DNA of 64,000 nucleotides from Eledone cirrhosa (taxonomy: Eukaryota): assembly GCA_964016885.1 (NCBI GenBank), contig OZ024741.1, positions 289,974,001 to 290,038,000 of the forward strand, in the 5' to 3' direction. The translations under genes were made by a program, and so were the position numbers. The notes under the pieces were generated by a model that searched no databases, was not told where the DNA came from, and saw only the letters and a program-made list of their open reading frames with translations. Below are positions 4,024-64,000 of the stretch, in pieces (position 1 is the first letter of the stretch; every line of letters starts with the position of its first letter).

Positions 4024-4531
<508 letters not shown>

Positions 4532-4796
4532 AAAGTTATATTTAAATTGTTGGGTTAACAACGAGTAAATATTTATAACTGATATAAAAGCACTCAACAA
4601 GTATTTGGAGTATATTTATGATATTAAATAAATGGAAACTATATTTATAAAACCATATTTATTTCGTTATATATATTTCAGGGATATCATATTAACAATA
4701 TGTTATGCCATCTTCAGACAAAATACAATATAAACAGTCTTATAAATAAATAGATACGACATACCTTTCAATCACCTTGCATTTGGGAGGTTGATT

Positions 4797-5439: not shown

Positions 5440-5478
<39 letters not shown>

Positions 5479-5599
5479 ACAAACATAGAATATTCGAAAA
5501 TATTCTGTATGTTTATAATAAACATTTTGAAGACCCAATCGCTATAGAATAGAATACGTCACGTATTACAATTTGAGATTCTCGATAAAAGCAAGGGAA

Positions 5600-5642
5600 G
5601 TAACCTACGCGTTTCATTCTTATTAGAAATCATCAGGATTAC
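5600..5642 (-). ncRNA. Minimal type I hammerhead ribozyme (312-bp unit 1)
   Basis: Minus strand GUAAUC-CUGAUGA-U-UUCU(AAUA)AGAA-U-GAAA-CGC-GUA-GGUUAC; 6-bp stem I; palindromic stem III ACGCGU. Confidence 0.85.
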
Positions 5643-5911
5643 ATATCCAGTGCTTTTATCGAGAACGACACAGCTAGAGACTTATAGAATACTTAGCTGT
5701 GTACAGGAACTGGTTTGAAAGAGCTGTAGCCGGTCCGGCAGAAATTAGAATTTGGATATAATGCTCTGAAATAGCGATATATATGTGAAGACAAACATAG
5801 AATATTCGAAAATATTCTGTATGTTTATAATAAACATTTTGAAGACCCAATCGCTATAGAATAGAATACGTCACGTATTACAATTTGAGATTCTCGATAA
5901 AAGCAAGGGAA

Positions 5912-5954
5912 GTAACCTACGCGTTTCATTCTTATTAGAAATCATCAGGATTAC
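5912..5954 (-). ncRNA. Minimal type I hammerhead ribozyme (312-bp unit 2)
   Basis: Identical to 5600-5642. Confidence 0.85.
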
Positions 5955-6223
5955 ATATCCAGTGCTTTTATCGAGAACGACACAGCTAGAGACTTATAGA
6001 ATACTTAGCTGTGTACAGGAACTGGTTTGAAAGAGCTGTAGCCGGTCCGGCAGAAATTAGAATTTGGATATAATGCTCTGAAATAGCGATATATATGTGA
6101 AGACAAACATAGAATATTCGAAAATATTCTGTATGTTTATAATAAACATTTTGAAGACCCAATCGCTATAGAATAGAATACGTCACGTATTACAATTTGA
6201 GATTCTCGATAAAAGCAAGGGAA

Positions 6224-6266
6224 GTAACCTACGCGTTTCATTCTTATTAGAAATCATCAGGATTAC
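6224..6266 (-). ncRNA. Minimal type I hammerhead ribozyme (312-bp unit 3)
   Basis: Identical to 5600-5642. Confidence 0.85.
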
Positions 6267-6483
6267 ATATCCAGTGCTTTTATCGAGAACGACACAGCTA
6301 GAGACTTATAGAATACTTAGCTGTGTACAGGAACTGGTTTGAAAGAGCGGTAGCCGGTCCGGCAGAAATTAGAATTTGGATATAATGCTCTGAAATAGCG
6401 ATATATATGTGAAGACAAACATAGAATATTCGAATATTCTATGTTTGTCTTCACATATATATCGCTATTTCAGAGCATTATAT

Positions 6484-6523
<40 letters not shown>

Positions 6524-23210: not shown

Positions 23211-23403
23211 TTAATGTTATTTTAATATATATATATATATATTGTTATACTTTGGGAGGGTCATGTTGCCAATAAGAAACACACGCACCAGTTGCTTTCA
23301 CTCCAATTTATTATAAATTAAATTTGTAAATTTATAAATTTATAAATTTATAAATTTCCGGTTGGTTGGTTGGTTCCACAACCGGACGGTTGTTCATATA
23401 TTA

Positions 23404-23444
23404 TCAAAGTTCTTTCATCACACATTCTGTGACCTCTTCAGTGA
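23404..23444 (-). ncRNA. Minimal hammerhead-like motif
   Basis: UCA-CUGAAGA-G-GUCACA(GAAUG)UGUGAU-GAAA-GAA-CUU-UGA; relative at about 36915-36950. Confidence 0.5.
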
Positions 23445-23539
23445 CTGGGGATTCTTTTCTTTGTTTTTGTGCCTCACCTTTGTTCTGTCCTACGCCATCT
23501 TGTTTTTGTGTGTGTTTATTTATTTTATGAGTGTGTGTG

Positions 23540-24093
23540 TGTGAATTTCGTATATCTGAAGATATACGGCATGTTTAATAAATAAACATTTTGAAAGCCC
23601 AGCTTCGAATATTGAAAAGCGGATGGTCAGCGCCGTTTAGCGGAATCCAGCAGAAGCAGCGGGGAACAACTCTCTATGCTCATTTTGAGCTCTGGCCCTC
23701 ATCAGGACAGTGCTTCCACTGCTGGATCATGAAACAGGCGAAAATATATAGTTTTTTCACCTGTGTAGGTGGGCTGATTAATTTCATTTTCATACTTAAA
23801 GTACTTAAAAGTAGAATTAAAATTTAGCTTCATATTCAAATGAGCTAATCAGCTCATCTACATTCGGCGAAAAACTATATATTTTCGTCTGTTTCATGTT
23901 CCAGCAAAGAGCAGGAGAAGCACTTTCTTTATTAGAGCCAGAGCTCGACATGCGCATAGACAGTTTTCCCCCGCTGCTTCGGCTGGAATCAGCTAGACGG
24001 GGCTGGCCGTCAACTATTCAATATTAATAGCAGAGCTTTCAAAATATTTATTTATTAAACGTACCCTATATATTTAGATATACGAAATTCACA
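23540..24093. mobile_element. Diverged fold-back element (~250-bp arms) with decayed HHR in each arm
   Basis: Consensus of the two arms restores CUGUC-CUGAUGA-GAGC(CAGA)GCUC-GAAA-UGCGC-AUA-GACAG. Confidence 0.75.
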
Positions 24094-26184: not shown

Positions 26185-26489
26185 TGTGCATATATGCATG
26201 CATGTATGTATGTATGTATAATTGAATGTATGTGTATCAATGCATGTGATTATGTGTATGTTTATGAATACTTGTGTATACATGAATGTTTGTATATATG
26301 CGTATAGAGAAGAGGAGCTAGCGGTGGCTGTTGTAAAGTGGCTGTAGTAAGAATCGTCAACGAGGTATGGGTTGGGGTGAGTGGAATGGACTGGGGACTA
26401 TTTAAGGTTGGGCACGGATTTGGTGCTGGATTTTTGATGACGAAGCTCGGATGAATGGAGTTGAAGGAGAAGGGAACTGCAGAAAGACG

Positions 26490-29010
26490 AAAGAAAAGAA
26501 AGAGATACAGGAAAGAGGGAAGAAAAGAAAGAGATAGAAGAAAGAGGGAAGAAAAGAAAGAGATAGAAGAAAGAGGGAAGAAAAGAAAGAGATAGAAGAA
26601 AGAGTGAAGAAAGAGTGAAGAAAAGAAAGAGATAGAAGAAAGAGTGAAGAAAAGAAAGAGATAGAAGAAAGAGGGAAGAAAAGAAAGAGATAGAAGAAAG
26701 AGGGAAGAAGAGAAAGAGATAGAAGAAAGAGTGAAGAAAGAGTGAAGAAAAGAAAGAGATAGAAGAAAGAGTGAATAAAAGAAAGAGATAGAAGAAAGAG
26801 GGAAGAAAAGAAAGAGATAGAAGAAAGAGGGAAGAAGAGAAAGAGATAGAAGAAAGAGTGAAGGAAGAGTGAAGAAAAGAAAGAGATAGAAGAAAGAGGG
26901 AAGAAAAGAAAGAGATAGAAGAAAGAGATAGAAGAAAGAGGGAAGAAGAGAAAGAGATAGAAGAAAGTGGGAAGAAAGAGTGAAGAAAAGAAAGAGATAG
27001 AAGAAAGAGAGAAGAAAAGAAAGAGATAGAAGAAAGAGTGAAGAAAAGAAAGAGATAGAAGAAAGAGTGAAGAAAAGAAAGAGATAGAAGAAAGAGGGAA
27101 GAAGAGAAAAGATAGAAGAAAAAGGGAAGAAAAGAAAGAGATAGAAGAAAGAGGGAAGAAAAGAAAGAGATAGAAGAAAGAGGGAAGAAAAGAAAGAGAT
27201 AGAAGAAAGAGTGAAGAAAGAGTGAAGAAAAGAAAGAGATAGAAGAAAGAGGGAAGAAAAGAAAGAGATAGAAGAAAGTGGGAAGAAAGAGTGAAGAAAA
27301 GAAAGAGATAGAAGATAGAGAGAAGAAAAGAAAGAGATAGAAGAAAGAGTGAAGAAAAGAAAGAGATAGAAGAAAGAGGGAAGAAGAGAAAAGATAGAAG
27401 AAAAAGGGAAGAAAAGAAAGAGATAGAAGAAAGAGGGAAGAAAAGAAAGAGATAGAAGAAAGAGGGAAGAAAAGAAAGAGATAGAAGAAAGAGGGAAGAA
27501 GCGAAAGAGATAGAAGAAAGAGGAAAGAAGCGAAAGAGATAGAAGAAAGAGATAGAAGAAAGAGTGAAGAAAAGAAAGAGATAGAAGAAAGAGGGAAGAA
27601 GCGAAAGAGATAGAAGAAAGAGGGAAGAAAAGAAAGAGATAGAAGAAAGAGGGAAGAAGCGAAAGAGATAGAAGAAAGAGGGAAGAAAAGAAAGAGAGAG
27701 AAGAAAGAGGGAAGAAGAGAAAGAGATAGAAGAAAGAGTGAAGAAAAGAAAGAGAGAGAAGAAAGAGGGAAGAAGAGAAAGAGATAGAAGAAAGAGGGAA
27801 GAAGAGAAAGAGATAGAACAAAGAGGGAAGAAAGAGTGAAGAAAAGAAAGAGATAGAAGAAAGAGTGAAGAAAAGAAAGAGATAGAAGAAAGAGTGAAGA
27901 AAAGAAAGAGAGAGAAGCAAGAGGGAAGAAGAGAAAGAGATAGAAGAAAGAGGGAAGAAGAGAAAGAGATAGAAGAAAGAGGGAAGAAAGAGTGAAGAAA
28001 AGAAAGAGAGAGAAGAAAGAGTGAAGAAAAGAAAGAGATAGAAGAAAGAGGGAAGAAGAGAAAGAGATAGAAGAATGAGGGAAGAAGAGAAAGAGATAGA
28101 AGAAAGAGGGAAGAAGAGAAAGAGATAGAAGAAAGAGGGAAGAAAGAGTGAAGAAAAGAAAGAGATAGAAGAAAGAGTGAAGAAAAGAAAGAGATAGAAG
28201 AAAGAGTGAAGAAAAGAAAGAGAGAGAAGAAAGAGGGAAGAAGAGAAAGAGATAGAAGAAAGAGGGAAGAAGAGAAAGAGATAGAAGAAAGAGGGAAGAA
28301 AGAGTGAAGAAAAGAAAGAGATAGAAGAAAGAGTGAAGAAAAGAAAGAAAGAGAAGAAAGAGTGAAGAAAAGAAAGAGAGAGAAGAAAGAGTGAAGAAAA
28401 GAAAGAGGGAGAAGAAAGAGGGAAGAAGAGAAAGAGATAGAAGAAAGAGAGAAGAAAAGAAAGAGATAGAAGAAAGAGGGAAGAAAGAGTGAAGAAAAGA
28501 AAGAGATAGAAGAAAGAGTGAAGAAAAGAAAGAGATAGAAGAAAGAGTGAAGAAAAGAAAGAGATAGAAGAAAGAGTGAAGAAATGAAAGAGAGAGAAGA
28601 AAGAGGGAAGAAGAGAAAGAGATAGAAGAAAGAGGGAAGAAGAGAAAGAGATAGAAGAAAGAGAGAAGAAAGAGTGAAGAAAAGAAAGAGGGAAGAAAGA
28701 GTGAAGAAAAGAAAGAGATAGAAGAAAGAGGGAAGAAAAGAAAGACATAGAAGAAAGAGTGAAGAAAAGAAATGGAGAGAAGAAAGAGTGAAGAAAAGAA
28801 AGAAAGAGAAGAAAGAGTGAAGAAAGAGAGAGAAGAAAGAGGGAAGAAGAGAAAGAGATAGAAGAAAGAGGGAAGAAGAGAAAGAGATAGAAGAAAGAGG
28901 GAAGAAAGAGTGAAGAAAAGAAAGAGATAGAAGAAAGAGGGAAGAAAAGAAAGAGATAGAAGAAAGAGGGAAGAAGAGAAAGAGATAGAAGAAAGAGGGA
29001 AGAAAAGAAA
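26490..29010. repeat. Polypurine minisatellite, 29-bp unit
   Basis: Variants of GAAGAAAAGAAAGAGATAGAAGAAAGAGG over ~2.5 kb. Confidence 0.95.
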
Positions 29011-29169
29011 TGAGAAAGGAGAAGAAAATAGGGAAGAAAAAGAGAGAAGAAAGCGAAGGGAGTGATGGATGAGGTGAAATAGGTGAAAAGAGTGAAAGGG
29101 GAAGGTGATGTGGAGAGGGAGATTTATACTGATCAGGTGCGAGAAAGGAGGGAATAAAGTGAACGTTTA

Positions 29170-48279: not shown

Positions 48280-48726
48280 TTATAATAAGGTTCTTCTAAT
48301 TCTATGATTGCAAGATATAATTAATTCCTGTCGCTTATTTAATAGGATATCCTTAGATTTCATGATTTCAAAAAGTTCCTCGGAGCATAACCTACACTCG
48401 TATCTGTTATTTTGATAAGGGATGGCCCCTTTGAGCACACTCCAGGTCAGGTTGTAATCGATATTCTTCTTTCTATAATCATTAATTGTTTCAGCCAAGG
48501 ATGTTGTATTAGCTAATGCGGCATTTTTAAAACTATGTTTGTGGGTATTAAATCTTATTTTAAATTGGTTAGACGTAGCTCTTATATATGAATAAGTGGA
48601 GTCCTTAGTGCTAATTTTACATTTATAGACTATGTTATTAATAAGATAATTTCCCTTTAATGGGCAATTTCTTTTGATTCTACAGTTACAACCATTCGTG
48701 AATATTATATCAGGGGAGTTAGTCAA
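48280..48726 (-). pseudogene. PLE GIY-YIG endonuclease domain
   Basis: CNCR..CPLKG..IVY..YI(R)AT..FKIRFNTHKHSF..CRLCSEE..LNKRQE..CNHR. Confidence 0.9.
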
Positions 48727-49399
48727 ATTTGGTGTGGAATTTACTCGGCTTGTTATAGGTGAAGGAGATTGTGGTTTGTTGCGGTTTATTTTAGTATTAT
48801 GGTTGGTTTGATGTGTTCGTGATATATTTGTGGGTTCTTTACATTTATATGCGTTGTACGCACTTATATTTTGTTGTATATTTTTGGTAGTGGAGTAGGA
48901 AAATTTGACAGTTGATCTATTTAAAATTTGATGATATTTATGGTTTGGCGGGAAGTTTTTCTCTAGGATAGTAAAAAGTTTTTTAGGGATATTATCTTTA
49001 ATTTGTAGATTAAATGGAGCATTATACCAAGTAACCGTCTATTACGGTTTCGATATTGTTTTTTATATTTATACGATGTCTCAGGATGTTTACTAAGAGA
49101 GTTACTATTAGTGAATTTATTATATATAGGTTTAGTTAGATTAACTGATTTAGGTGTTTTAGTCTGATTACTAGGAAATTTGTTAGTAATGTTGTTAACA
49201 TATATTGGAGTTTTAGGATAAATGGTTTTTTGAAAGTCATTATATTTTATGTGAGAAGAGGTAGAGAAATTAAGTTTTAGGTTGGTAGTTTTGGGTGTAG
49301 TATGAGTGGCATTTAGGTGTGGGTTTTTCATTTGGTGTTTGTTGGTAATATTGGGTTGTATGTTTGAAGTATTATTGGTGCAAGGTATATAACTAATTT

Positions 49400-50198
49400 G
49401 TTTTTGTAGCCGCTTCTAGCTAAAGCTTCGTTATAAAAGGGCGCGTTTTTATCGAATACATCCTGGTTAGATGAAAGGTTAGAGATTCTGAGTGAGATAT
49501 TATATGCTAGGTTTTTAAGGATAGATCTAGGGTGATTGGATTGTGAGTGTATGTAATGTAAGTTTTGGTTAGGTCTAAAGTTATATCTGGGAAATTGACT
49601 ATTTTACTGGTGTTTTCAAATGTAATAGTGAGATTGTAATAGTCTTCGAGGAAAGTTCTGATAAGTTTTTTTTTTTTTTTTAATTTCTGATAGGCTAAGA
49701 TTAGTGGAAAGAACAAGACAGTCATCACGATATAAACTACCTTTAAGGTGGGGAAAAGATGAATTAATGTTAAATAGAAGAAAGAGGCCCACAAGATCGG
49801 TAATTTGGGCGGAATCACTAGAGCCCATAGTAATGTCGAAGAGATTACTATATGTATTTCTGGTCCAGTATTCCTTCTGAAATTCCAATAGTGTTTGTCT
49901 AGCGTGCGTGATAATATTAATGTCATCCATAGTTAAGTTTGATCTATTTTTGGCAAATATCAAGGCTTTGTTCAGGAGTATGGGTGACATAGAGGAATAA
50001 TAAGCATCTGTATCAAATTGTAGAAATGAAGCAGATGATTTATTTCTAATATTAGTAAACCAGTCAATTACCTGGGATCTATTTTCCCAGAGTGGTAAAT
50101 TAACGTGTTTTCTTAATTGTGGGATGATTCTATCTAAAAAATGTTTACTAATGATGCCAATGTCAGACTTGGAAGGGCATATAAGTCTTATGAAAGGA
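49400..50198 (-). pseudogene. PLE reverse transcriptase, frameshifted
   Basis: RLICPSKSDIG, FLQFD..AYYSS, FDITMGSSDSAQITDLVG, LYRDD, VNFPDITLDL. Confidence 0.92.
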
Positions 50199-50452
50199 TT
50201 AAAAATTCTTATGGAAGGATCGAAATTCTTTTTGCTCAGAACATTCCCTGAAACATAAGTATTACATGTGTAAAGTTTGAAAAGAGTCGGTTGGGTGCTT
50301 CTCTAGTTTTAGGGATTCAAACTCACACACACAGACAGACATCCTCAGTTTCATATATATAGATAAATGAAGTATTTCCGTACAGGAAAAAAGAGTGCTC
50401 TATGTAAGTTACAGAGCTTATTAGTTATGTAATAAACAACGTAAGATAATTA

Positions 50453-50514
50453 TTTCATTTACCAGTAGTTTCTTGAAGGCAGATGTTATGTCTGTCTTCA
50501 GTCGTCAGAATGAA
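50453..50514 (-). ncRNA. Type I hammerhead (other arm)
   Basis: Near reverse complement of 50537-50599. Confidence 0.65.
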
Positions 50515-50536
50515 TAATAATATAGATGTTATTTAT

Positions 50537-50599
50537 TTTCATTCTGACGACTGAAGACAGACATAACATCTGCCTTCAAGAAACCACTGGTAAATGAAA
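50537..50599 (+). ncRNA. Type I hammerhead, C.A at stem II base
   Basis: UUUCAUU-CUGACGA-C-UGAAG.CAGA..UCUG.CUUCA-A-GAAA-CCACUG-GUA-AAUGAAA. Confidence 0.75.
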
Positions 50600-50884
50600 T
50601 AATTATCTTATGTTGTTTATTACATAACTATATATATATATATACAAATATATATATATATATATTCGTGGTTTTGTCTTTACGTGTAATTTTTTTTCAC
50701 CGCTCCAAATAATGACGTATTATATTCGTTTTTTCCCGTTCTTTGACAGGGAACGTTTCCACGAACCAAAGTATCGTCTTCCTGTCTTCCTCCGATTGCA
50801 ACGTTTTTTGAAATATTCACTTCTGCGTTCACAGATTGACTTTGTTAGTTTCAGAAGATGCCGTTAAGGGTGAAAGCAGCGATT

Positions 50885-56451: not shown

Positions 56452-56639
56452 AATTGTTTCTACTTTAGGCACAAGGCCAGCAATTTACCAGTGCATTACT
56501 GGTACTTTATTTTATCGACCCCGTAAGGATGAAAGGCAAAGTCAACCTCGGCGGGATTTGAACGCAGATCGTAAAGGGACGTAACTATGCTGGAAAGCAT
56601 GGCGTCCGACCCTCTACCGATACTGCCAATCCACCGCCC
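56452..56639 (-). mobile_element. SINE family A inserted in the PLE inverted arm
   Basis: Full length; ATAATATTAATAATAAT duplicated on both sides. Confidence 0.9.
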
Positions 56640-56702
56640 TATAATATTAATAATAATAATGTCCTATTTGCGGTCCACAATTGCACTAATCGGGGAATTG
56701 AT

Positions 56703-58087
56703 TTGCTAAAGAAACAATTACATAGATTCTTCAAAAATAACGGTCTCTCTATCACCATCGAGCTGAACCATAAAGTAGTAAACTTCCTAGACGTCACCCT
56801 TGATCTCAACAATAACCTCTATAACCCTTACCATAAACCAGGTGAAATACTCACATATATTAGCCCACACTCTAACCACCCACCGGCAGTCATCAGAGCA
56901 GTAATCAAACCTATCTCCTATAGGATCTCAATGCTATCAGCAAATGAGGAGATATTTATAAACCACGCACAATATTATAATAAGGCTCTCTCTGAATCTG
57001 GTTATAAACAATCAATTTATTACATACCTAAATGCCATAACACAGCAACTCACAATAATAAACTTAACACTAGAACTAGAAATATCTTAGCATATAGCCA
57101 GATTCGCCGGAATTTTAGCAGTAACAGCACCTATACAGGGAACTTTAATGGTGGCAGCGGCCTGCTCCCCACTCCAAGTAGCAAACTAAAAATCAATCCT
57201 AGAATAGGAATGAGAAATGGGATGACAAATAACAAATCCCCAGGTAATAATAACCCTAGGAAAGCCCCTACCAACTCCACTAGAACCCCTAGAAAGAATA
57301 GACCTAGAAATATCACCTGGCTAAATCCCCAATTCTCATCTAATCTAGCCACTAATATCCCCAAACGCTTCTTCTCTAGCCTACCCCCCCCCCCAACCAT
57401 AGATATTACAAACTCTTTAATAAAAATAACATTAAAATCTCATTCTCCACAACACCTAACCTAGCTAGCCACATCGCGTTCAGTAACCATCATAAGCTAA
57501 GACAGTATAACTCCCACACCTCGGTACCACCACCCCTATCAAATACACCACGCCACTACACCAATAATTACTCTAGTAGCACACCTCCCCCATCTAATCC
57601 TTCTAGCACGGACCTACCGCTTAGGTTAAACAACCCTACTCTCACTAACCACAGAAGTAACTGCCGTTACCCCAATGCATGCCCATTAAATGGACACTGC
57701 CTGACATCCAACATAGTCTATAGGTGCATGGTTGAGACTGCTTCGAATACCAGCTCTTATATCGGGTCTAACTCTAACCCTTTTAAGGTACGCTATAATG
57801 CGCACTCTTTTTCCTTCCGAGACCCTAGCAACAGATGTTCGACATCGCTAGCTAGGCTCATTAAAAACCTTAAATTAAACAACGTTCAATACTCACTAAA
57901 ATGGGACATCGTGGCTAGGGCCCAACCGTTCAATGGACGAAGAAAATCTTGTGATCTCTGTGTTATAGAAGCATATTACATAACTCTATCACGACCTCTA
58001 CCGATTAACGATAGAACGGAGGTAACCATTAGCTGTCAACACCGAAGGGCTAATTCCTTCGCCAATAGAATTGTTGACCCAACTTAG
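56703..58087 (+). pseudogene. PLE RT thumb, linker and GIY-YIG (frameshifted)
   Basis: VNFLDVTLDL..PYHKP..SNHPP; NITWLNPQFS; CPLNGHCL..IVY..YIG..FKVRYNAH..CDLC..E..CQHR. Confidence 0.92.
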
Positions 58088-61400: not shown

Positions 61401-61463
<63 letters not shown>

Positions 61464-61760
61464 TGAAACAAAATGAAAACGAAATTTCATTTCTCACTCT
61501 TAGTATGGCACTTACTTAAATGTAAGTATGCATGTATACGTACATACATATATGTATACAGACGTACAGTAGCATGCACATATATATATATATATACATA
61601 TATATATACATATGCATACAGGTACACATACATATATGCACGTATCAGTTTAGCGGCGCTAACGTCGCTTTGTTCGTTTGTAAACAAACTGAACAGCCTG
61701 AATTTATGCCATACGGTGTTAAGGCAACCACGTCACCTTTTTGTTCAACACTGACACAGG

Positions 61761-61805
61761 AACGATGTACTAGTTTCAAGCTTGTTAGCTATCATCAGCA
61801 CCGTT
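61761..61805 (-). ncRNA. Minimal type I hammerhead (466-bp unit 1)
   Basis: AACGGUG-CUGAUGA-U-AGCU(AACA)AGCU-U-GAAA-CUA-GUA-CAUCGUU; 7-bp stem I; palindromic ACUAGU. Confidence 0.87.
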
Positions 61806-61838
61806 TACCCATCTGCCAGATAGTTGAACGTTCGAAAG

Positions 61839-61886
61839 TATATACTTTCCTTATGAAAATTAACGGCTGAGCAGCCTAATTTGCAT
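61839..61886 (-). promoter_or_regulatory. Putative internal promoter (octamer + TATA), repeated in each unit
   Basis: ATGCAAAT at 61886-61879 and TATATA at 61844-61839; same spacing at 23834-23881. Confidence 0.45.
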
Positions 61887-62226
61887 ATTGAGTGAGTTAA
61901 ATCGGTCAGGCATACCGAAAACGATAAATTGAAACAAAATGAAAACGAAATTTCATTTCTCACTCTTAGTATGGCACTTACTTAAATGTAAGTATGCATG
62001 TATACGTACATACATATATGTATACAGACGTACAGTAGCATGCACATATATATATATATATACATATATATATACATATGCATACAGGTACACATACATA
62101 TATGCACGTATCAGTTTAGCGGCGCTAACGTCGCTTTGTTCGTTTGTAAACAAACTGAACAGCCTGAATTTATGCCATACGGTGTTAAGGCAACCACGTC
62201 ACCTTTTTGTTCAACACTGACACAGG

Positions 62227-62271
62227 AACGATGTACTAGTTTCAAGCTTGTTAGCTATCATCAGCACCGTT
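62227..62271 (-). ncRNA. Minimal type I hammerhead (unit 2)
   Basis: Identical to unit 1. Confidence 0.87.
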
Positions 62272-62692
62272 TACCCATCTGCCAGATAGTTGAACGTTCG
62301 AAAGTATATACTTTCCTTATGAAAATTAACGGCTGAGCAGCCTAATTTGCATATTGAGTGAGTTAAATCGGTCAGGCATACCGAAAACGATAAATTGAAA
62401 CAAAATGAAAACGAAATTTCATTTCTCACTCTTAGTATGGCACTTACTTAAATGTAAGTATGCATGTATACGTACATACATATATGTATACAGACGTACA
62501 GTAGCATGCACATATATATATATATATACATATATATATACATATGCATACAGGTACACATACATATATGCACGTATCAGTTTAGCGGCGCTAACGTCGC
62601 TTTGTTCGTTTGTAAACAAACTGAACAGCCTGAATTTATGCCATACGGTGTTAAGGCAACCACGTCACCTTTTTGTTCAACACTGACACAGG

Positions 62693-62737
62693 AACGATGT
62701 ACTAGTTTCAAGCTTGTTAGCTATCATCAGCACCGTT
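62693..62737 (-). ncRNA. Minimal type I hammerhead (unit 3)
   Basis: Identical to unit 1. Confidence 0.87.
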
Positions 62738-63158
62738 TACCCATCTGCCAGATAGTTGAACGTTCGAAAGTATATACTTTCCTTATGAAAATTAACGGCT
62801 GAGCAGCCTAATTTGCATATTGAGTGAGTTAAATCGGTCAGGCATACCGAAAACGATAAATTGAAACAAAATGAAAACGAAATTTCATTTCTCACTCTTA
62901 GTATGGCACTTACTTAAATGTAAGTATGCATGTATACGTACATACATATATGTATACAGACGTACAGTAGCATGCACATATATATATATATATACATATA
63001 TATATACATATGCATACAGGTACACATACATATATGCACGTATCAGTTTAGCGGCGCTAACGTCGCTTTGTTCGTTTGTAAACAAACTGAACAGCCTGAA
63101 TTTATGCCATACGGTGTTAAGGCAACCACGTCACCTTTTTGTTCAACACTGACACAGG

Positions 63159-63203
63159 AACGATGTACTAGTTTCAAGCTTGTTAGCTATCATCAGCACC
63201 GTT
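63159..63203 (-). ncRNA. Minimal type I hammerhead (unit 4)
   Basis: Identical to unit 1. Confidence 0.87.
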
Positions 63204-63624
63204 TACCCATCTGCCAGATAGTTGAACGTTCGAAAGTATATACTTTCCTTATGAAAATTAACGGCTGAGCAGCCTAATTTGCATATTGAGTGAGTTAAAT
63301 CGGTCAGGCATACCGAAAACGATAAATTGAAACAAAATGAAAACGAAATTTCATTTCTCACTCTTAGTATGGCACTTACTTAAATGTAAGTATGCATGTA
63401 TACGTACATACATATATGTATACAGACGTACAGTAGCATGCACATATATATATATATATACATATATATATACATATGCATACAGGTACACATACATATA
63501 TGCACGTATCAGTTTAGCGGCGCTAACGTCGCTTTGTTCGTTTGTAAACAAACTGAACAGCCTGAATTTATGCCATACGGTGTTAAGGCAACCACGTCAC
63601 CTTTTTGTTCAACACTGACACAGG

Positions 63625-63669
63625 AACGATGTACTAGTTTCAAGCTTGTTAGCTATCATCAGCACCGTT
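63625..63669 (-). ncRNA. Minimal type I hammerhead (unit 5)
   Basis: Identical to unit 1. Confidence 0.87.
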
Positions 63670-64000
63670 TACCCATCTGCCAGATAGTTGAACGTTCGAA
63701 AGTATATACTTTCCTTATGAAAATTAACGGCTGAGCAGCCTAATTTGCATATTGAGTGAGTTAAATCGGTCAGGCATACCGAAAACGATAAATTGAAACA
63801 AAATGAAAACGAAATTTCATTTCTCACTCTTAGTATGGCACTTACTTAAATGTAAGTATGCATGTATACGTACATACATATATGTATACAGACGTACAGT
63901 AGCATGCACATATATATATATATATACATATATATATACATATGCATACAGGTACACATACATATATGCACGTATCAGTTTAGCGGCGCTAACGTCGCTT

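Follow-up and report, generated by a model that had tools for sequence, protein, structure and literature searches.

The window analysed here is a 64,000-nucleotide stretch of the Eledone cirrhosa genome (GCA_964016885.1, contig OZ024741.1, positions 289,974,001 to 290,038,000, forward strand). It contains a tandem array at 5476–6434 with a period of 312 nt and 99% matches, comprising three full units plus 23 nt. Unit 3 deviates by one base (6349) from units 1 and 2, which match each other exactly and have in common the variant missing from unit 3. Monomer numbering follows the RNA-sense (minus) strand and begins at the predicted hammerhead cut site, position 1 being 5605. In this numbering the array forms a long minus-strand arm, arm A, of 3.07 units, with its outer 3′ end at position 130 (site A) and its inner end at position 108. 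A short arm of opposite orientation, arm B (6429–6486, plus strand), covers positions 108–165 in 58 nt and has its outer 3′ end at a second position, site B. The arms meet in a 6-nt self-complementary overlap common to both, TTCGAA (6429–6434), and form a perfect 55-bp palindrome (6377–6431 and 6432–6486) at the RNA-sense 5′ end of the array. The stretch from site A to site B, here called the tail, is 35 nt long in this copy (6452–6486, plus strand). A repeat search places (TA)n target sequence on both sides, at 5443–5475 and from 6486/6487 to 6523. Each unit carries a type I hammerhead on the minus strand, at 5600–5642 (by motif and fold), 5912–5954 and 6224–6266 (by motif), with the cut in the first predicted at 5606/5605, and neither end of the array falls at that site. 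A perfect 15-bp helix, scored at 16 bp as a flank duplex, encloses each hammerhead on the minus strand (5579–5593 with 5651–5665, repeated at +312 and +624). The initial annotation, which had described the unit count, the hammerheads, the enclosing helix, the inversion, the flanking (TA)n and array ends displaced from the cut site, is confirmed in all of these features.

There is no ORF of at least 120 amino acids over 5476–6486, no LTR in the array anatomy, and no RT or GIY-YIG ORF between pLTRs, by which an autonomous Penelope-like element (PLE) would be recognised. The array has tandem repeats within the range of 150–1000 nt and type I hammerheads in two or more units in a row, and it is a young non-LTR retrozyme by the working definitions given in 10.64898/2026.07.22.740005 and PMC7229834. 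A plant LTR retrozyme, with a type III hammerhead in LTRs, a primer-binding site and a polypurine tract, is excluded by the type I topology and the tandem units. Other repeats lie in the same window. A short element between TA runs at 4530–4796 resembles by eye an inverted-repeat element with a hammerhead-like core seen at another locus (L085). A 2.5-kb purine-only satellite at 26481–29023, with periods of 16, 29 and 127, is followed by (TAG)n. A second hammerhead tandem occupies 61458–64000 on the minus strand in 466-nt units that are 100% identical; it starts at (TA)n and continues past the window end, and one 312-nt family arm (L058) lies inside a relative of it.

On the minus strand the hammerhead core, CTGATGA...GAAAC-GC-GTA, is found at 5636, 5948 and 6260. 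Stem I is 6 bp long; stem II has an unpaired U.U and then 4 bp; the palindrome ACGCGT makes up the loopless stem III. A palindromic stem III implies that cleavage needs a dimer, so that the hammerhead works in tandems and stays quiet in monomer circles (PMC4209133). In Schistosoma, paired hammerheads are found on opposite strands 100–700 bp apart (PMC4209133). Among Xenopus dimers, 8 of 9 showed no cleavage (10.64898/2026.07.22.740005), which weighs against a hammerhead-cut circle. An Rfam search of the array gave nothing at the gathering score; each unit has a sub-threshold match to HH9 at 19.9 bits (cut-off 52, E 0.059). Matches to miRNA precursors at the palindrome are far below cut-off and were rejected as hairpin artefacts. 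The initial annotation had proposed folding the circular monomer, and this gave z −4.8 (−4.5 for the linear form). One family haplotype swaps a G-C pair of the enclosing helix for A-T. Catalytic core and remaining sites are equally variable among family copies (0.39% each), which is weak counter-evidence to the reading favoured below, because neutral decay of the copies predicts the same.

Exact matching in the 3.0-Gb genome found 520 copies of the 33-nt hammerhead core and 974 tail motifs, and the best full-length matches have 96–100% identity. About 61 loci lie on one 443-Mb contig, from which some 400 insertions are estimated genome-wide. The family is dispersed, mobile and young, with several hundred recent insertions. 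Ninety-two loci were fetched for comparison: 39 best-scoring candidates, which are biased toward multi-unit insertions, 13 taken among the first 100 core matches, and 40 selected by one end pattern. One of them, L079, is a duplicate of L065; most counts exclude it and cover 91 independent loci, but it is still counted in the figures for arm-length fit, inner-end distribution, divergence, locus-fixed variants and mirroring. L152, which has an internal duplication, served as a control only.

The architecture of the window copy recurs across the family. Two back-to-back arms, antisense then sense with their 3′ ends outward, make up 71 of the 91 loci, the other 20 being single-arm or complex. All 64 classifiable two-arm loci have site A (125–141) and site B (162–176) once each, with no A+A or B+B combination; one end lies elsewhere in 7 of the 71 two-arm loci. 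The one-A-one-B rule also holds in every one of the 37 such loci that were picked independently of their ends. Among all loci picked in that way (n = 51), 88 of 92 outer ends fall in the two bins, which amount to 10% of the unit. The modal outer ends are 132 and 168, 36 nt apart, and account for 26 of 56 scored A ends and 44 of 63 scored B ends. At least (TA)3 is present within 12 nt of 124 of 128 outer flanks of A+B insertions. The tabulation of starts and unit numbers suggested in the initial annotation, made over these loci, bears it out in part: inner ends are scattered round the unit and unit number varies, up to seven per arm, but the outer ends are fixed, and the free circular permutation that had been postulated is not supported, since the inner 5′ ends alone vary.

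The initial annotation had also read the inversion as a fold-back, as would arise if the end of a single rolling-circle cDNA folded back and primed its own second strand. Self-priming has been proposed as the source of PLE palindromes (PMC3846280), and the perfect palindrome of the window copy, centred on a self-complementary hexamer, agrees with it. However, of 59 simple two-arm junctions just 2 have a palindromic centre, site B is invariably the end of the second arm, which may be the longer of the two, and unit variants are not mirrored between the arms, as detailed below. Because the outer end stays fixed at site B whatever the arm length, the second arm appears to be independently primed, and what had been read as a fold-back is a general two-arm structure with one arm at the short end of its range, since palindromic centres are confined to the window copy and L070. 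Self-priming is largely refuted by the A+B rule and is highly improbable as an account of the family; it could still apply to the window junction alone.

These features are the marks of Penelope insertion. PLE insertions have an inverted 5′-truncated partner and a tail of 30–40 bp at one end, and some clades favour (TA)n (PMC8557442, PMC3846280). The anole PLE protein cleaves AT-rich DNA on both strands and extends them, and the tail is delimited by the two internal points at which its reverse transcription begins (PMC11167929). The retrozyme family reproduces the inverted partner copy, the tail (36 nt between modal ends) and the (TA)n target, and this insertion architecture very probably ties it to Penelope enzymes. 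The PLE-type mobilisation postulated in the initial annotation is supported by the end data together with the haplotype data below, which indicate that several units of one haplotype were inserted in one event. Two degenerate PLEs with RT and GIY-YIG-type frames lie in the window, at 48280–50630 (minus strand) and at 56562–58087 (plus strand), the latter a member of a large family. The first has an inverted terminal pair at 50353–50630 capping its body (48280–50302), in which the cap at 50548–50630 mirrors a stretch ending at 50504, an inversion of the kind with which the initial annotation had compared that of the retrozyme. Neither window PLE has any match to the retrozyme. Pfam, applied to 9 window ORFs, detected a single RVT_1 fragment, and both degenerate PLEs escaped it. 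The genome is rich in GIY-YIG elements; no partner PLE sharing retrozyme sequence in its pLTR was recognised in 60 endonuclease loci (the best 30 of 10,597 and the best 30 of 59,160 candidates), and none was recognised beside 100 sister-family loci.

The inner ends record where synthesis of each arm would have stopped. Only 4 of 118 lie within 8 nt of the cut site, compared with 6 expected, and 3 lie within positions 127–185, compared with 18 expected (p = 7e-6); this avoided zone coincides with the presumed RT-binding region. Secondary structure has no effect on arm stops, with pairing of 0.62 at inner ends and 0.60 overall. Arm lengths are compatible with an exponential distribution (mean 562 nt, KS p 0.16), and the two arms of an insertion are correlated in length (rho 0.38, n = 58, p 0.004), also in the 32 less biased loci (rho 0.36, p 0.04). 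Of 49 flush junctions, 20 have overlaps of at least 3 nt, counted with the locus haplotypes, where chance predicts 6.5%; extra bases are present at 9 of 58 junctions. Where the arms of four loci meet (L114 at 2532–2791, L120 at 2554–2667, L080 and L115), there is foreign sequence or a jump in phase, which suggests template switches in synthesis or later insertions. Crossings of the cut site are seamless, with no indel in 281. R2-type RTs are known for template jumping, and an RT that jumped end to end along cleaved linear monomers could mimic a circle. Such jumping is scarcely credible here given the absence of indels at the crossings, the lack of a pile-up of ends at the cut site, and the near absence of haplotype switches between adjacent units.

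The haplotypes of the units are uniform within insertions and diverse between them. Divergence is 0.63% within arms, 0.59% between the arms of one insertion and 1.87% between insertions; at 19 polymorphic sites the corresponding values are 0.8%, 0.65% and 19%. Of 122 pairs of adjacent units, 5 are unlike at two or more polymorphic sites; of 2775 random insertion pairs, 2113 are. Among 76 loci 29 haplotypes are found. Variants foreign to the family consensus and fixed within a locus are present in both arms in 13 of 18 cases. In 6 loci out of 43 a single polymorphic site separates the two arms, and in four of the 6 this site is a hot spot, position 190. Unit-specific variants are mirrored in the opposite arm in 2 of 92 cases in the same register and 4 of 73 at an offset of one unit, a test that has power only if the source arrays had unit-specific variants; in the duplicated control locus 8 variants are mirrored. 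Position 190 toggles among the units of a single insertion in 8 of 55 loci and position 276 in 5 of 63 (e.g. L058, L062 and L047), possibly through RT misreading at fixed template sites or gene conversion.

Growth of the arrays after insertion has to be weighed against this uniformity. Short PLE-type insertions might have been expanded later by unequal crossing-over or slippage, and some change after insertion is indicated because L065 and L079, which have flank and junction in common, differ in unit number by 2 in one arm and 1 in the other, and because some variants recur in non-adjacent units (L047, L058, L059, L062). The L065/L079 difference is change after insertion or an assembly error, and the identical units 1 and 2 of the window copy would also agree with expansion. 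As an account of the arrays as a whole, later expansion is improbable, for units are as close to the opposite arm as to their own. Most units date from the insertion, because neighbours are as divergent (0.59%) as units two (0.58%) or three (0.65%) apart; at 4–6 units apart the divergence reaches 0.7–1.7%, in few loci.

The best reading, and a probable one, is Penelope-driven twin priming on a predicted circular 312-nt monomer. Tandem transcripts would be cut by double hammerheads formed via the palindromic stem III, and the monomers would be ligated into a circle that the lone hammerhead cuts poorly. A PLE RT-endonuclease may bind positions ~70–170 of this circle; after cleavage in (TA)n, the two DNA ends would prime at different sites, one at A and one at B, each cDNA would proceed for 0.2–7 rounds with strand displacement, and the 3′ ends of the two cDNAs would be joined through microhomology. 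In the window copy, arm A would represent 3.07 rounds and arm B would have halted at 58 nt.

The main rival is PLE twin priming on an uncut linear tandem transcript of a genomic array, for which a circle is unneeded. Such a transcript of a young uniform array would leave a nearly identical record, and seamless cut-site crossings (281 of 281) are equally expected from it. Uncut RNA is the main in vitro substrate of the anole PLE, with hammerhead cleavage unnecessary (PMC11167929), and the minimal hammerheads of PLEs cleave weakly (PMC4209133). At L063 the cut-site base is G in 5 of 6 units over both arms, the exception sitting mid-arm. NUG at a hammerhead cut site is not known to be cleaved, and the L063 variant counts against a hammerhead-cut circle because such a circle should lack G there; its pattern fits neither a clean hammerhead-cut circle nor a mirrored linear template. 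Against a linear template stand the sparse mirroring of unit variants between arms, and the variants fixed in both arms (13 loci) together with the 29 haplotypes, which imply repeated single-monomer bottlenecks. Furthermore, arrays copied from uncut transcripts would shrink every generation because daughter arms cannot exceed the source length, yet in 30 of 58 insertions each arm is longer than one unit. Reuse of a junction between loci was not noticed by eye save in the L065/L079 duplicate. Taken as a whole, the linear template is unlikely, but it deserves more weight than the other rivals. Of 68 loci, 3 are mixed at the ligation site, position 312 (p 0.036); misreading there is only a hint of a circle because this position is mixed less than 190 and 276. 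A 342-nt contig closing a 312-nt cycle in sequencing run X5 was set aside as proof of a circle, as a tandem array yields the same cycle. Runs X1–X3 contain many variant contigs of the family.

Sister lineages were recovered from the flanks of family loci, and their hammerhead helices were scored by motif anchors. They keep the hammerhead layout with other sequences; stem I is kept, and stem III is palindromic and different each time (ACAGACTGT, ACGATCGT, ACAGCTGT, ACAAGGCCTTGT). U3-A8 replaces C3-G8 in four of the lineages, a known variant of PLE hammerheads (PMC4209133). Self-cleavage is predicted from the motif and from this covariation. The enclosing duplex has −19 to −32 kcal/mol in intact representatives, with differing sequences; three copies that are decayed or truncated have −17.6, −7.5 and −0.4. 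In sister families 2 and 4 the ends fall at two positions, separated by 26–29 nt in search coordinates. The window also contains, at 23350–23850, an old two-armed copy that belongs to a seventh sister lineage (~80% identity to its relatives, 1781 candidates) and shares the motif TTCAAAATGTTT..AAACATA.

The kind of element found here is known. Metazoan non-LTR retrozymes likewise have non-coding tandem units of ~300 nt with a type I hammerhead each, and PLEs co-occur with them; their circles have been demonstrated, mobilisation through a circle and PLEs has been proposed (PMC7229834, 10.64898/2026.07.22.740005), and local amplification has been invoked for the tandems (10.64898/2026.07.22.740005). 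They are described as head-to-tail, whereas our family, known from DNA alone, is two-armed. The available portions of PMC7229834 and 10.64898/2026.07.22.740005 do not describe two-armed inverted insertions, fixed ends, a tail or one haplotype per insertion. No description of two-armed, fixed-end, single-haplotype retrozyme insertions was found elsewhere in the literature searched, from which subscription journals and supplements may differ; within that literature the two-arm architecture is undescribed for retrozymes.

PLEs with the endonuclease share with the family the inverted 5′-truncated partner, the 30–40-bp tail and the AT-rich or (TA)n targets (PMC8557442, PMC3846280, PMC11167929), and their hammerhead lies ~100–170 nt upstream of the two internal RT starts (PMC11167929). 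Unlike them, the retrozyme has no ORF and its arms may each hold many whole units. The strict use of one A and one B per insertion also exceeds the in vitro PLE report, in which start sites were used without a strand difference (PMC11167929). Chlamydomonas MRC1 is similarly non-coding and is mobilised by a PLE into multi-copy head-to-tail insertions, but for MRC1-type elements a partner with 3′-end similarity has been identified, and canonical hammerheads are absent from their clade (PMC8557442). The retrozyme family differs from MRC1 in its conserved hammerhead, and no partner was recognised among the loci examined. In LINE-1 twin priming, two DNA ends prime on one RNA, leaving an inverted segment with a microhomology joint; the second site is variable and the template linear. 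In the retrozyme, by contrast, both sites are fixed and each arm may exceed the monomer several times.

It seems rather more plausible than otherwise that two coupled Penelope RTs roll round a single circular RNA from two fixed starts, one per DNA end, and that the sister clan marks the RT-binding signal. If true, one mechanism would account for retrozyme arrays, PLE inverted ends and the PLE tail. The signal marked by the clan of at least six or seven sister circles would be the common TTCAAAATGTTT..AAACATA hairpin region, ending near TTCA (site A) and AAT (site B). The return of animal retrozymes to DNA and the formation of PLE inverted ends and tails are treated as unsolved in the accessible parts of the literature. 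The 312-nt template, the two mapped start sites, the one-A-one-B rule and hundreds of young insertions together yield sharp predictions that the existing in vitro PLE assay could address, and the family would represent a natural design for writing multi-copy DNA off a small RNA circle.
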